Source: a virus. Taken from it: a stretch of 64,000 nt of DNA. A program made the position numbers and the translations under genes. The stretch is from positions 2,803 to 66,802 of the IMG/VR virus record IMGVR_UViG_3300045922_000151. One strand, written 5' to 3'. Under the pieces are notes generated by a model, which was not told the DNA's origin, ran no database searches, and saw only the letters and a program-made list of their open reading frames with translations. Shown one piece after another: positions 4,837 through 55,445 of this stretch (the first letter of the stretch is position 1; each line of letters begins with the position of its first letter).

Positions 4837-5259
4837 TTAGAACGGAATGTCATCCGGGTTGAACTCCTCTCCCGAGTTTCCCTCCGGCTCTTTTCCATAG
4901 TTATCGAATTGCTCATCGACCTCGCCCTTTGGCTTCTGTCCGAAGTCAAACCGCTCTGCGATGATCTGCGATCTATACCCCTTGCCCGATCCGTCTTTCT
5001 TATCGTAGGTCTCATGTTCCTGACGACCCTCGATGTAGATTTCCTGACCTTTGACGAAGTACTGCGCGATCACCTCGGCGGTCCGGCCGAACGTCACTAC
5101 GTTGTGGAACGTCACCTTTTCCTGCTTCTCGCCTCCGTCATTTTTCCAGACGTGATTCGTTGCTACCGAGAATGTGCATACCTGCGTTCCGCTCGGTGTT
5201 AACCGCAGTTCGGGCTGTTTTGTCAGACGCCCGATGATCTGAATTTTATTTAGGTTCAT
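4837..5259 (-). CDS. ssb: Single-stranded DNA-binding protein
   Basis: NLNKIQIIGRLTKQPELRLTPSG OB-fold start; C-terminal DDIPF. Confidence 0.97.
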   Translation of the reverse strand: MNLNKIQIIGRLTKQPELRLTPSGTQVCTFSVATNHVWKNDGGEKQEKVTFHNVVTFGRTAEVIAQYFVKGQEIYIEGRQEHETYDKKDGSGKGYRSQIIAERFDFGQKPKGEVDEQFDNYGKEPEGNSGEEFNPDDIPF

Positions 5260-5464
5260 TGTCGTTTGTTACATAGCACTCCGGATATGATCCGTGATCC
5301 GCGTACCACGCTGACGGTGTCGTGTGGTATTGCTCCGCCACACACGCTTCGTATTTGTCCGCCCACTCCATGAGCTTCGCGTCCCTTTGGTTTGTCCACC
5401 AGAGGATGAGACCCATGACGGTGATCAAGACGATGATCCAGATTGCTATCTTAGTGTTTTGCAT
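5246..5464 (-). CDS. Small single-pass membrane protein
   Basis: N-terminal hydrophobic helix, two Cys in the C-terminal part. Confidence 0.6.
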   Translation of the reverse strand: MQNTKIAIWIIVLITVMGLILWWTNQRDAKLMEWADKYEACVAEQYHTTPSAWYADHGSYPECYVTNDNEPK

Positions 5465-5496
5465 GGTGTTTTTTTGTTGATAAAAGCCCCCGATGC

Positions 5497-6225
5497 CTAT
5501 CGCGTCGTGAGGCCGAAGTATTTCCCGATCTCCTGCGTCGCGCGGAAGCGCGTCGTGATCGGCATCTTTTTTGCTGATTTGGTGAATGCGTTATGGAGCG
5601 ACCACATTGATCTCGCTTGGAACTCCGGATGTATCGGATTCTCGAAATTGTTTCTAACCTCTTCCATGAACTTTTTCGGCATGATCCCTTTCGAGAAGAT
5701 GTCGAACATCACCGCCTTTGCTTTCTCGTCGCTTATTGATGTCTTTTTGAGCGTCTGCATCTCATCGTTGAGGATGCCGAAGTGATCCCGGAGCTTTCCT
5801 ACCGCCTCCGTGATCTCCGCTTCAAGGTCTAACCCCGATGTGTGCTTTCGCCTGAGCGCGATCATGTCGCCTCGGAAGACGAGGTTGTCGCAGACGAACA
5901 CCGTAAATCCGGCGCATATCTGGATCGACATCGTTTTGTTGAGAGCCTGCCTAATGCCTAAGGTCGCGGTCCCGTCGTTCCCGAACGGGCTTCCCGTCGT
6001 GAACTTGAGCTTCGACACCCAGAACATAAGGAGTCCCTTTCTCCCGATTCCGAACTGTTCCTGCTCTACCCATATGCCCTCCTTGCGGAGAACCCTGGTC
6101 ATTGTCTCGAGGAGCTCGATGTGAGGTACCGGTTTCCAGGTCTCGGTACTCTCCGGAGTTTCTAGTTTTGCGATCTCCGATCGCTTCATCTCATGAGTCC
6201 CTCGATGTAGCATCAATCCTTGCAT
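5497..6225 (-). CDS. DUF932-family protein
   Basis: WKPVPH, AGFTVFVCDNLVF, RRKHT and WSLHNAFT motifs. Confidence 0.8.
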   Translation of the reverse strand: MQGLMLHRGTHEMKRSEIAKLETPESTETWKPVPHIELLETMTRVLRKEGIWVEQEQFGIGRKGLLMFWVSKLKFTTGSPFGNDGTATLGIRQALNKTMSIQICAGFTVFVCDNLVFRGDMIALRRKHTSGLDLEAEITEAVGKLRDHFGILNDEMQTLKKTSISDEKAKAVMFDIFSKGIMPKKFMEEVRNNFENPIHPEFQARSMWSLHNAFTKSAKKMPITTRFRATQEIGKYFGLTTR

Positions 6226-6276
6226 GGTTTTTTTGATTCTTATTGGTTTCTAATTATCGACCTTTACACTGTCTAT

Positions 6277-6322
6277 ATTATAAAAGTTTTATAACCCCGT
6301 AAAATGACAGCTGTTGATAACT
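6277..6322 (-). promoter_or_regulatory. Early promoter: AGTTATCAACAG box, TTTACG -35, TATAAT -10 with palindrome TATAAAAgTTTTATA
   Basis: Motifs read directly; repeated architecture. Confidence 0.7.
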
Positions 6323-6359
6323 CCGTCTGTAAGCCTCCTTGCCCCGCCCCTTATAAAGT

Positions 6360-6470
6360 CCATGTTCACGACGTGGACATGGTGTCCATGTTCACCTGGT
6401 GGACATGCCCATGTTCACGGGGTGAACATTAACAATACACATAGAACAAAACTCAGTATAGGTAGCAAAA
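6360..6470. repeat. Three tandem palindromic iterons plus A-rich tract: putative replication origin of phage A
   Basis: CCATGTTCAC-NNN-GTG(G/A)ACAT at 6360, 6386 and 6409, followed by AACAATACACATAGAACAAAAC. Confidence 0.7.
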
Positions 6471-6510
6471 TTCCCTGTAGCGATTCTTTTCTCCGTCATT
6501 CAGGTATGAG

Positions 6511-6536
6511 AAAAACCGCCCTTTCGAGCGGTTTCT
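6511..6536 (-). terminator. Intrinsic terminator ending the late/lysis transcript
   Basis: Minus strand AAACCGCTC-GAAA-GGGCGGTTTTTCT. Confidence 0.75.
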
Positions 6537-6587
6537 CCCTAACCAACAAGAACCACGAAGCGATGAGGCCCATGCAAAACCTCCCCC

Positions 6588-6791
6588 TTAGTGTAGCCTA
6601 CCTGGCTTTCCTTGTCGATTTTCGCTGGCCGGAGCTTTCTTCTTCGGCTTCGCGACCGGCTTTGGTCCCGTTACCGTTTGATACTTGCCAACGATCCCTG
6701 CGAGTTCTTCCTTGGAGATCGTTTCACCAACGCGCTCGGAGAGCTCCGGGCACTTCTTGGCGATCTCGGCAGTGATAGTTGTGTATACCAT
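6588..6791 (-). CDS. Small basic hypothetical protein
   Basis: 67-aa ORF with upstream TGGTATAGT extended -10. Confidence 0.55.
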   Translation of the reverse strand: MVYTTITAEIAKKCPELSERVGETISKEELAGIVGKYQTVTGPKPVAKPKKKAPASENRQGKPGRLH

Positions 6792-6835: not shown

Positions 6836-7282
6836 TTAATCCTTGGGAGGCCTCCCGAGCTTCTTCACGCACCCTGGGAACTGCTTCTCCCATTCGACCC
6901 CCGGATCGTGGATCATGTTCGTGACGATCTCTTTTTGGAGGTCGTGGCTCTTGAGGAGTTCCATCAGCTTTTCATGTGGAACGCCTGCCTCGATGACCCC
7001 GTAGAGCTCCCCGTAAAACTTGAATGTAGACGGCTTGAATTGAAATGAGTAATAGCTTGGCGTCCCGTCCAGGTCTTCTTCGTTTATGGCGGTTGTGACC
7101 CCCTGACTTTCGCACCATTCCAGTGCGTTGATCCATACCTCCTGGCGATGCGATAACGTCACCGGAGGTTTCTCCGGAGTCTGATCTGCTATCGCCTCCG
7201 GTTCTACCGTCGTATGAGGCCACAATGTGATTGCCGATGCCCCCGCCACGAGCACTGCGACAAAAAATAAGTGTTTTTTCAT
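6836..7282 (-). CDS. Signal-anchored lysozyme-fold transglycosylase (Rpf/SLT-like)
   Basis: MKKHLFFVAV.. signal, ALEWCESQG (catalytic Glu), YYSFQFKPSTF; homologue at 39533-39985; start re-called to ATG 7282. Confidence 0.7.
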   Translation of the reverse strand: MKKHLFFVAVLVAGASAITLWPHTTVEPEAIADQTPEKPPVTLSHRQEVWINALEWCESQGVTTAINEEDLDGTPSYYSFQFKPSTFKFYGELYGVIEAGVPHEKLMELLKSHDLQKEIVTNMIHDPGVEWEKQFPGCVKKLGRPPKD

Positions 7283-7390
7283 AGGTGCGTCGGTTTCGCT
7301 CCGACAACTCCGTGTCTGCTTTCCACCGTATCCGACCCCTATATTGTAGCACTTTTCCGGCAGGATTTCCGGCTTCTTGTCCACCCCGGA

Positions 7391-7570
7391 CTAGCCGTTA
7401 TTGACGTCCGTCTTTACGTCAATGCCCTGCTTTTGAAGCCATGCTACCCCTACTTTGAGCAGAACGCCTACACCTATGAGTGTGAGCGCGAGCACGATGT
7501 CATCGAGCTTTGTCAGACCTGCCCCGATGAGAAGCGATCCCGCGTCTCCGATTGATAGTTTGTTGTCCAT
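7391..7570 (-). CDS. Putative holin (59 aa, not in ORF track)
   Basis: Hand-translated MDNKLSIGDAGSLLIGAGLTKLDDIVLALTLIGVGVLLKVGVAWLQKQG...; hydrophobic; lies between lysin and transglycosylase. Confidence 0.6.
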   Translation of the reverse strand: MDNKLSIGDAGSLLIGAGLTKLDDIVLALTLIGVGVLLKVGVAWLQKQGIDVKTDVNNG

Positions 7571-53919: not shown

Positions 53920-54532
53920 TTATTCAGCAGTTATAATCGCAACACCACCATTGGTTCTATTGAGGACAACTCCGTAGAGAATATCCGCAGTAGTCAATGT
54001 ATGGAGGTATGCTTGCTGGTAAGACGACTGCACACGAATGCCGTGTTTGCCAACTGTTCCGTTTTCTGTCATCACAGGCAACGAAGCAGTGGCATAGTGA
54101 ATAGCATCATTCACGGCAAGCGCATTGTATCTTCCCGTTGAGCCGCTAACATTCTTAATGAAGTTAGAGGCATAGAGAGGAATACTATACAACTTGCCCA
54201 TAACACCCTTGCCGATAGGAGACATCTCCGGAGCATTGACAGCCAAAGTGAACTTATCAATGCCCATCAAGTCATCCCATACAACAGCGGTGTCAATGAA
54301 GAATGCCGCTTCACCAAGATTAGCGCCCGTAGCCGCCAAAATAGCAATCGCCTTGCGAATATTTGAGTCAACAAGATCAGTAGTAGAAGTGCCAACCGAA
54401 GAAGTAAATGAACTAAACAAGTCGGTAATTGCCTGTTCTAACTTCTTTGCTAACTCATATCCGGCATTCTTTGCCAACCTGTCTTGGAGGTAGAAAGAAC
54501 GCATAACCTGAACAGCTTCTTTATCCTCAATT
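53920..54532 (-). CDS. Major capsid protein exon 2 (P22/T7-like coat)
   Basis: Frame open upstream of annotated Met: IEDKEAVQVMRSFYLQ...TADILYGV. Confidence 0.9.
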
Positions 54533-55445
54533 CAATTTTGTTATCACAAGAACATCTCTTTCTCGTTTCCTTGTATTACTACAAGGTTCGGGTCATATCA
54601 CGCCTTTCGGCTGGGACATTTGTGGGGATTATATTTATTCACCCCTGACCTCCTCACTCGCCCGGAGAGCCTTTCGCAATCTCTCCTGCTGGCTCTGTAT
54701 TATCCAATTTCTGGACTTCTACAGAATTAGCCCCATTATTCAATAATTCGTCATCATTATCTCTCCTGTATGTTTTTCTATGACAGATTTTACATAGGGT
54801 TATCCCGTTATTTATATCGTAAAAATAAGGATCATTTAACCAAAATGGATTATTTCTGTCTCCGGGATAATCACTCAATAACTTCCATAATCTTACCTTA
54901 TGGTGCGGTTCAAGCATTTTTCTCTCTAATTTTTCCCCGCATATTTGACAGGTAAAATTATCTCTCTGAAAAACCGCAAGCCTCCATTTCTTGTAAGCAA
55001 TCAATCCTCTCATTCTCGTTCCGATATACCTTAATCCATTTTTGTAATTTGGGTTTAATTCCCCCAGATATAATATTCTTCTATAGTCGGCTAAACATTT
55101 TCTTGAGCAATAAGTTCTTCTATCTTTTGCATAACTCTTAAATGTAGAAAATTCCTTTCCGCAATTTTCGCATTTTAATTTTACCCTTCCATATTCACTT
55201 CTGCATTTCAAAGAGCAAAATAATATTTTTTGCTTTTTAAGATAGCTCTTTCTTCTGTAAAACTCTTTTCCGCAATTCAGACAAAATCTTTGCACTGCTC
55301 TATTTTTTCTACTCCATTCAACAAAACATTTCCAAGAACAACATTTTTTATGGTCTGGAGGAATTTCCTTATTCTTACAATTTACGCATAACATTGATTG
55401 TAAAAGAGCAATAATGATTGGCGAATTAAGGTCGTAATTGTGCTT
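54533..55445 (-). ncRNA. Group I intron (IA-like, 913 nt) in capsid gene
   Basis: P3 TGGGGC/GTCCCA, P4 TTCTGT/ACAGAG, P7 GGTCA/TGACC, P8 GCC-GAAA-GGC, P9 CCTTGTA-GTAA-TACAAGG, terminal G at 54533; removal restores the frame. Confidence 0.9.
54654..55394 (-). CDS. Intron-encoded HNH homing endonuclease with N-terminal Zn-finger repeats
   Basis: C..CGKEF...FCS..C repeats; WRLAVFQRDNFTCQICG...EPHH...NGITLCKICH. Confidence 0.92.
   Translation of the reverse strand: MLCVNCKNKEIPPDHKKCCSWKCFVEWSRKNRAVQRFCLNCGKEFYRRKSYLKKQKILFCSLKCRSEYGRVKLKCENCGKEFSTFKSYAKDRRTYCSRKCLADYRRILYLGELNPNYKNGLRYIGTRMRGLIAYKKWRLAVFQRDNFTCQICGEKLERKMLEPHHKVRLWKLLSDYPGDRNNPFWLNDPYFYDINNGITLCKICHRKTYRRDNDDELLNNGANSVEVQKLDNTEPAGEIAKGSPGE

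Follow-up and report, generated by a model that had tools for sequence, protein, structure and literature searches.

The stretch of viral DNA analysed here comprises 64,000 nucleotides (nt) of the IMG/VR record IMGVR_UViG_3300045922_000151 (positions 2,803 to 66,802) and will be subsequently referred to as the window. The record is a 66.8-kb contig, rated 100% complete, and the sequencing runs that contain it come from hot-spring and microbial-mat samples. Within the window the gene for the major head (capsid) protein is divided into two exons by a 913-nt insert, which has the architecture of a group I intron and which carries an open reading frame (ORF) for a putative HNH homing endonuclease. 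The features of this locus are collected in Table 1, in which all intron and exon coordinates refer to the minus strand. The 5′ splice site of the insert is probably unusual, in that the last base of exon 1 is a C that lies opposite an A of the intron.

Table 1. The split capsid gene and the elements of its predicted group I intron, listed 5′ to 3′ along the transcript (window positions).
Feature	Position	Strand	Sequence or pairing	Basis and remarks
Exon 1, major head protein	55446..55729	-	94 codons + 2 bases; ends ...UUCGC	
Group I intron (predicted), 913 nt	54533..55445	-		Homologue alignment, in-frame TGA, P9.0 and terminal G, guide, core covariation
P1 hairpin	55432..55449	-	UCG/CGA; C55446 opposite A55435; intron AA/UU; loop GCACAA	
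Internal guide	55432..55440	-	CAAUU-A-CGA (CAAUUACGA)	8/9 Watson–Crick to joined exon ends
P2, 5′ strand	55401..55428	-		Inverted repeats
HNH homing-endonuclease ORF (putative), 246 residues	54654..55394	-		In P2 loop; frame differs from exon 1
P2, 3′ strand	54744..54770	-		Inside 3′ part of HNH ORF
P3, 5′ strand	54730..54735	-	UGGGGC; pairs with 54617–54612	6 pairs, 100% paired in 3 sequences, 2 compensatory
P4 enclosing P5	54694..54725	-	P4 54725–54721/54698–54694; P5 54716–54713/54705–54702	Minimum free energy fold, covariation
P6 and P6a	54660..54693	-	GCC/GGC; GGAGAG/CUCUCC	P6a in minimum free energy fold
P7, 5′ strand	54646..54652	-	G, bulged A, GGUCA; pairs with 54595–54590	
P7.1 hairpin	54624..54645	-	GGGG, 14-nt loop, CCCC	Between P7 and P3 3′ strand; 4/4 pairs compensatory
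P3, 3′ strand	54612..54617	-	GUCCCA	Forms pseudoknot with P7; covariation
P8	54602..54611	-	GCC-GAAA-GGC	2/3 pairs compensatory
J8/7 and P7, 3′ strand	54590..54601	-	GUGAUA; UGACCC	Similarity to annotated RIO-1 intron
P9 hairpin	54569..54586	-		5/7 pairs compensatory; sequence same in RIO-1
P9.1 hairpin	54546..54566	-	Conserved AGAGAUG loop	7/7 pairs compensatory
P9.0 UU and terminal G54533	54533..54535	-	A54588–U54534, A54587–U54535	
Exon 2, major head protein	53920..54532	-	Begins AAUUGAGG	phrog_283 major head protein, E 4.9e-07

Exon 1 matches the major head protein family phrog_267 (E 2.6e-06) and aligns with residues 1–96 of intron-less homologues. The ORF that starts at 55729 (MPWPTGTF...NQWYEVSFA) continues for 21 codons past the junction to a stop at 55384–55382, and the ORF of exon 2 can be read back only to the ATT at 54531, where it is preceded by an in-frame TGA (54534–54532). 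Joining the two pieces (284 and 613 nt) gives 299 codons including the stop. An earlier note on this DNA had described a group I intron with these boundaries in the major capsid gene, and a coat protein of 298 residues formed across the junction TTC GC| + |A ATT GAG; both descriptions agree with the present analysis, the former through the homologue alignment and the covariation of the core and the latter through the codon count.

The insert lies exactly where uninterrupted homologues of 298–300 residues read WYEVSFAIEDKEA. In an alignment of both window pieces with 11 intron-less homologues (alignment A1) the region reads ...(D/N)QWYEVSF(A/N/S/M)IEDKEA... with zero indels, WYEVSFA being supplied by exon 1 and IEDKEAVQV by exon 2. 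None of 80 related viral loci has an insert in the capsid gene, and several intron-less loci contain exactly the joined-exon sequence of the window. The comparison with intron-less coat homologues that had been proposed as a check therefore bears the assignment out. A search with exon 2 returned 127 homologues at E ≤ 0.001, and among the 120 listed most are 280–308 residues long. Two full-length homologues, P0002 and P0030, match phrog_267 with E 1.3e-15 (residues 8–295) and 2.9e-26 (residues 10–303) respectively. Pfam gives no match for full-length capsid homologues, and none was returned when 50,697 phage records were searched with exon 2 by tblastn.

The same sample also contains a minor DNA contig of 969 nt (runs X1 and X2, corresponding to window positions 54530–55482), which is approximately 87% identical to the window and in which the capsid gene is intron-less. 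This contig runs uninterrupted through the site as ...WYEVSFAVEDKE, encoding ...SFAVEDKE, and three of its bases near the insertion site are unlike those of the window exons. It marks the boundaries of the insert at the DNA level and says nothing on splicing; it could represent either a target for homing or an allele that resists it. Judged by contig depth (66.8 against 4.6 for the intron-less relative), the genotype with the intron predominates in the sample, and in runs X3 and X4 no contig covers the locus.

Given the TGA in front of ATT, just four cuts are compatible with a colinear product, and GC| + |A ATT is the only one in which the intron ends in G. The last exon base is thus placed at C55446 because of the reading frame, the zero-indel fit to the homologues, and the terminal G that follows a covarying P9.0. 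The terminal G at 54533 had already been proposed, and its position agrees with both P9.0 and the in-frame TGA. The homologues demonstrate that the gene is split and place the junction to within one base. An intein or a translational bypass was considered and rejected, as the HNH ORF is in a different frame from exon 1, exon 2 is preceded by a stop, and the insert has an RNA structure that covaries.

The hallmarks of a group I intron are present in the insert: helices P3–P9 in canonical order, a pseudoknot formed by P3 and P7, a G-C site in P7, and a terminal G accompanied by P9.0 and P10. P7 is formed by GGUCA (54650–54646) pairing with UGACC (54595–54591). The joining (J) segments J4/5 and J5/4 are A-rich, and a 16-nt motif of the P9 hairpin recurs in nine introns. 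The closing pairs of P6 were read by eye from alignments A2 and A4 (described below) and stand outside the covariation count.

The core was compared with those of two related introns, L173 and L242, which align to the 205-nt core of the window with a mean column identity of 78% (alignment A2). In a 42-pair structure made up of eight helices (P3, P4, P5, P7, P7.1, P8, P9 and P9.1) 99.2% of the cells are paired, and 22 of the 42 pairs are compensatory, against 2–4 when the 3′ partner is slid. P9.0 is paired in 6/6 cells of the three sequences with both pairs compensatory, although in so small a sample 43 of 500 shuffles equal this result. Extending the comparison to 21 introns (alignment A4) leaves the structure 95.5% paired and P7 100% paired. 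Four of the six P7 pairs switch jointly between GACUA/UAGUC (7 sequences) and GGUCA/UGACC (14 sequences), a ratio that is biased since the relatives were fished with a P7-variant pattern. The pair G54650–C54591, which follows the bulged A54651, is an invariant G-C in 21/21 introns and is the expected guanosine-binding site. These alignments demonstrate, by sequence comparison, the predicted fold of the insert and its covariation. The GGTCA/TGACC form of P7 and the extra hairpin of P7.1 type are both as the earlier note described them, and both covary.

At the 5′ end the intron begins AAGCA-CAAUUACGA, the second part of which is the internal guide. The CAAUU segment of the guide pairs with AAUUG of exon 2 (P10, 5 bp) and its CGA with UCG of exon 1, with A55435, opposite C55446 at position −1, as the sole mismatch; this is the guide pairing and P10 that had been proposed from the sequence. 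Among the 889 9-mers of the spliced coding sequence the 8/9 fit of the guide is unique, and when the first 30 bases of the intron are shuffled 20,000 times, 62 of the shuffles reach the same score. The minimum free energy fold of the 5′ region contains both the UCG/CGA and the AA/UU pairs of P1.

In place of the usual U·G wobble at the 5′ splice site, therefore, C55446 lies opposite A55435. A U at −1 would form a Watson–Crick pair with this A, so that both partners differ from the U·G (U to C and G to A), and the combined change retains wobble geometry. The C·A is treated here as a variant of the P1 feature and not as a ground for excluding membership of group I. Other U·G registers for P1 were also looked for, by comparing every U in 55455–55449 by eye with every G in the first 40 intron bases, and none was found with flanking pairs. 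Among 65 intron-less alleles the position corresponding to −1, which is the middle base of the codon at the variable residue (X), is occupied by C in 60, by A in 3 and by T in 2; the count covers the loci with a motif match, the 15 of 80 loci that do not match the motif being left out.

The P2 duplex has a predicted stability of −20.6 kcal/mol, a value equalled by 0/1000 shuffles and by 0/117 windows from the interior of the ORF. The HNH gene therefore sits in the P2 loop. The low-complexity tail of the ORF overlays the 3′ strand of P2 and P3–P6, and it stops in J6/7. The encoded protein matches phrog_1271, an HNH endonuclease family (E 5e-22), and 10 more PHROGs named HNH endonuclease; the Pfam matches are below cut-off (HNH_2 18.3 bits against 21, HNH 15.7 bits against 21.4), and an HH...N...CxxCH pattern is visible. 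Family match and motif mark the ORF as a putative HNH homing endonuclease. The ORF region has a GC content of 31–34% as compared with 42–46% in the exons. A search of viral contigs with the HNH protein found only distant relatives (26–42% identity), and 5 of the 39 loci also have a match at E ≤ 1e-4 to R1, a covariance model that is introduced below. The best of the HNH matches by E-value (7e-20, 39% identity) is the protein of L090, which shows the same layout of an HNH gene in a long P2. No second copy of either the HNH gene or the intron core was found in the window or the record.

A separate observation concerns translation into the insert. The frame of exon 1 passes through P1 and the 5′ strand of P2 (55382–55445) before its stop, while a related intron, L247, has UAA as its first three bases, and the frame meets a stop after 5–7 codons in L173 and L242. 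The long read-in means that ribosomes could disturb the folding of P1 and P2 here more than in these relatives.

To relate the intron to others, the covariance model R1 was built from alignment A2 (window, L173 and L242). R1 scores 208 bits on the window, 119 on L090 and 91.5 on L247, and it finds about two dozen more introns; its matches include L139 (8685–8896) with 74.2 bits and the intron of Pseudoalteromonas phage RIO-1 with 31.3 bits. The L139 element and the RIO-1 intron are both recognized by the Rfam model Intron_gpI, with 59.2 bits (cut-off 50) and 56.8 bits respectively, so that R1 provides an indirect, model-based link between the intron of the window and Rfam-certified introns. 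A scan of viral contigs for the P7 variant together with J8/7 gave 114 loci, of which 18 have an R1 match at E ≤ 1e-4; the remaining loci were regarded as chance or coding matches. A second pattern scan found L247 in addition to the already known L173 and L242, and a scan of a single metagenome gave four loci, two of which are the L247 intron and two (L249 and L250) lack an R1 match. The pattern scans of the viral contigs and the single metagenome turned up no other intron at this site of the capsid gene. Weak matches of the window to other Rfam families (STnc480, small nucleolar RNAs and others) are far below the cut-offs and were taken as chance.

The closest relatives of the intron are those of L173, L242, L247 and L090, all IMG/VR contigs, and like that of the window all four interrupt major capsid genes. 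The five introns share the GGUCA/UGACC form of P7, a single P7.1, a P8 that abuts the 3′ strand of P3, and a 3′ tail of the form GAUAACAAA..G. A P9.1 loop of AGAGA type (AGAGAUG, AGAGAUA or AGAGACG) is common to the window, L173 and L242, whereas the loops of L090 and L247 differ. L173, L242 and L247 encode LAGLIDADG proteins as opposed to the HNH proteins of L090 and the window. Unlike the window intron, the relatives interrupt capsid genes of different families, at different sites, and a U·G can be read at the 5′ splice site of all four as well as in RIO-1. In L173 and L242 the exon ends ...ACCACU| and the guide is GGUGG; in L090 ...AACU| is matched by a GGU just before P2, the junction (AAEFN-W-KQYSV) being set by capsid proteins of Stenotrophomonas and Bradyrhizobium phages; and in L247 the exon–intron boundary ...GUCCU|UAA is matched by the guide GGGAC, with a 7-bp P10.

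The RIO-1 intron (NC_021300.1) was the one telling, although weak, match in a blastn search of phage records with the 3′ 238 nt of the window intron, 34 nt covering J8/7, the 3′ strand of P7 and P9 being 85% identical. It lies in a primase/helicase gene and is annotated as a non-coding RNA; the record notes a resemblance to introns of Staphylococcus phage PH15 and Bacillus phage beta22. The two introns have the same core order, and according to the Rfam alignment RIO-1 also has an insertion between P7 and the 3′ strand of P3, which makes the name P7.1-type hairpin apt. They are similar in J3/4–P4, J8/7 and the 3′ strand of P7, their P9 hairpins have the same sequence, and RIO-1 likewise ends ...AUUG. 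RIO-1 differs from the window in its GACUA/UAGUC P7, in the lack of an ORF and of a long P2, in a canonical U·G (AUGCGU with GCGCAU, in our reading) and in being detected by Rfam.

Taken with the exon alignment, these features make it likely that the insert is a mobile phage-type group I intron of the major head gene, which is cut after C55446 opposite A55435 and leaves a product of 298 residues. The transcript would fold into the P3–P9 core, with the guide CAAUUACGA aligning both exon ends. An external guanosine would then attack after C55446, opposite A55435 in P1. G54533, held by P9.0 (and P10), would be exchanged into the G site and the exons joined, giving the capsid protein ...WYEVSFA-IEDKEA.... 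We infer that splicing takes place, at this phosphate and with the C·A as the wobble. The dominance of the intron-bearing genotype in the sample argues that the capsid protein is made. A homing intron of the capsid-gene lineage would have entered, or adapted to, a site at which −1 is fixed as C by its place in the middle of a conserved Ala codon (GCN). With A instead of G in the guide the pair can keep the wobble geometry, as in engineered c-A ribozymes.

A number of observations weigh against this reading. The 5′ region alone folds no better than its shuffles (z 0.00), and the exon part of P1 amounts to just 3 bp and the C·A. An identical messenger RNA would result if the cut were shifted by one base, to follow A55445, so that A54532 became the end of the intron, and the choice between these two adjacent cuts hangs on the terminal-G rule and on P9.0. 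Alignment A4 was made to the covariance model, a procedure that favours the structure of the model. The use of group I covariance models that the earlier note had proposed gave a divided result: RF00028 (Intron_gpI) has no match on the window at the gathering score, none at E ≤ 10 on 54300–55700 (1401 nt) or 54520–54775 (256 nt), and none on L173, L242, L090 or L247 (E ≤ 0.01 or E ≤ 10), but R1 links the window to introns that Rfam does certify. The U·G pairs of the relatives are our own reading, and only that of L090 was checked against homologues. Runs X1 and X2 are possibly the source of the window DNA, and thus C55446 and A55435 are not independently confirmed. Finally, no RNA run is among the runs listed for the record, and the contigs examined are DNA.

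The apparent C·A could be an artefact of assuming colinearity with the homologues, the true cut in a group I intron being made after a U. A cut after U55449, for example, gives ...WYEVS-L-IEDKEA, one residue shorter, and its TT + A is in frame with the terminal G54533. U55449, however, would form a Watson–Crick pair with A55432 at the base of P1 and not a wobble, and in our reading no U in 55455–55449 can face a G in the 5′ part of the intron and also have paired neighbours. Such a cut also drops the nearly invariant F94 and shortens a stretch that is indel-free in 11 homologues, while the guide matches the colinear junction at 8/9 positions and no other 9-mer of the coding sequence so well. 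We therefore consider a cut after a U to be very unlikely. A more radical view, that the insert is not removed from the RNA at all and that the capsid gene, broken by a free-standing HNH gene, now yields two polypeptides or is dead, would suit the lack of a listed RNA run and of an Rfam match, and exon 2 has an internal ATG at 54504 from which a second polypeptide could start. In our reading no evident ribosome-binding site precedes this ATG, and approximately 200 nt of non-coding-type structure covary with related introns, with a guide and P10 that fit the exon ends. Most of the 120 listed homologues (of 127 at E ≤ 0.001) have the length of the joined product (280–308 residues), and the intron-bearing contig is the dominant one (66.8 against 4.6) in a record rated 100% complete. 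A gene left in two pieces is highly improbable on these grounds.

It may also be that splicing does occur at C55446 but without a C·A wobble, the phosphate being selected by its position in the helix alone or with the aid of the HNH protein or a host protein, and A55435 serving as a spacer. The short exon part of P1 is in keeping with this, as is our reading of L247 and L173, in each of which one base of the guide is left unpaired between the partner of the wobble and the part that forms P10. In the window, though, a single base separates CGA from CAAUU; this base faces C(−1) directly and is flanked on either side by stacked pairs. Furthermore, of the replacements for u-G in engineered ribozymes, c-A works best (PMC11417360). 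A spacer role for A55435 is accordingly judged improbable. The preferred reading, in which the C·A acts as the wobble, leaves the question of why such a pair is present. The earlier note had suggested a regulatory checkpoint. The C·A might for instance be a protonated A+·C wobble, making splicing and the supply of capsid protein dependent on intracellular pH and temperature as a late-gene checkpoint in a hot-spring host, but we regard this as unlikely, and the sequence offers no sign of regulation. The simpler and most likely explanation is that the Ala codon fixes the C and that the guide has adapted to it.

Group I introns are held to insert after a U, and those with homing-endonuclease genes are known from phage structural genes, the capsid gene included. 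The chemistry of the C·A was predicted decades ago. Doudna, Cormack and Szostak reportedly engineered c-A variants of the splice site in 1989. Hur and Waring are said to have found C·G in two fungal introns in 1995, which is a Watson–Crick pair, unlike the C opposite A of the window. In the Tetrahymena ribozyme engineered c-A gives accurate two-step splicing, slightly below the level of u-G (PMC11417360). Those variants resemble the window in having an exon C opposite a guide A at the reactive position of P1; they are, however, laboratory substitutions in an intron of eukaryotic ribosomal RNA, whereas the window has a natural phage intron, of predicted activity, in an essential gene. Group B IStrons splice after G (PMC4227781); this is a one-base shift beside a U·G, unlike the arrangement here, and what the two have in common is an exon that ends in a base other than the U of a U·G. 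A C at the site has been invoked in a survey for recA alleles without an intron (PMC2504315). The earlier note had called U·G the usual 5′ splice site and C·A a rare substitute. The first part agrees with the U·G that we read in the four relatives; for the second, C·A was met only in engineered form, and no natural C·A 5′ splice site was found in the searchable literature, the coverage of which is incomplete and does not establish absence from print.

If the proposed reading is correct, a natural intron that inserts after C by means of a G-to-A change in its guide shows that the target rule can be bent in nature, and in the way that ribozyme engineering predicted. The range of sites open to colonization would be wider, including here the second base of Ala codons. 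There is also a gap in annotation, in that a whole lineage of capsid-gene introns (window, L173, L242, L090 and L247) goes unseen by RF00028. As a result, split capsid genes of metagenomic phages will be mis-annotated as two ORFs and an HNH gene.

All 24 ORFs of at least 250 residues in the window are on the minus strand, and no transfer RNA genes were found in the window. Upstream of the capsid gene lies a 605-residue ORF with a weak match to SU10_portal (19.5 bits; cut-off 30). The other upstream neighbour, an ORF of 209 residues, matches no PHROG, and its Pfam matches are all below threshold; its position suggests a scaffold-like protein.

Introns recognized by R1 also occur close together on other contigs. 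Two or three lie near one another in L136, L187 and L155/L223, and clustering appears to be common in the R1 family. On the minus strand of L242 (5108–7468) three LAGLIDADG-type ORFs follow in a row (6836–7468, 6146–6700 and 5108–5653) with one R1 core; further introns, or inteins, may house the remaining two ORFs. The minus strand of L139 (8121–9542) has four tandem R1 matches in approximately 1.4 kb, three of which are also matched by Rfam Intron_gpI (59–68 bits), in a gene whose exon translation we take to resemble photosystem II D1 (psbA). The same contig has a match to the glutamine riboswitch at 2310–2362 (45.7 bits).

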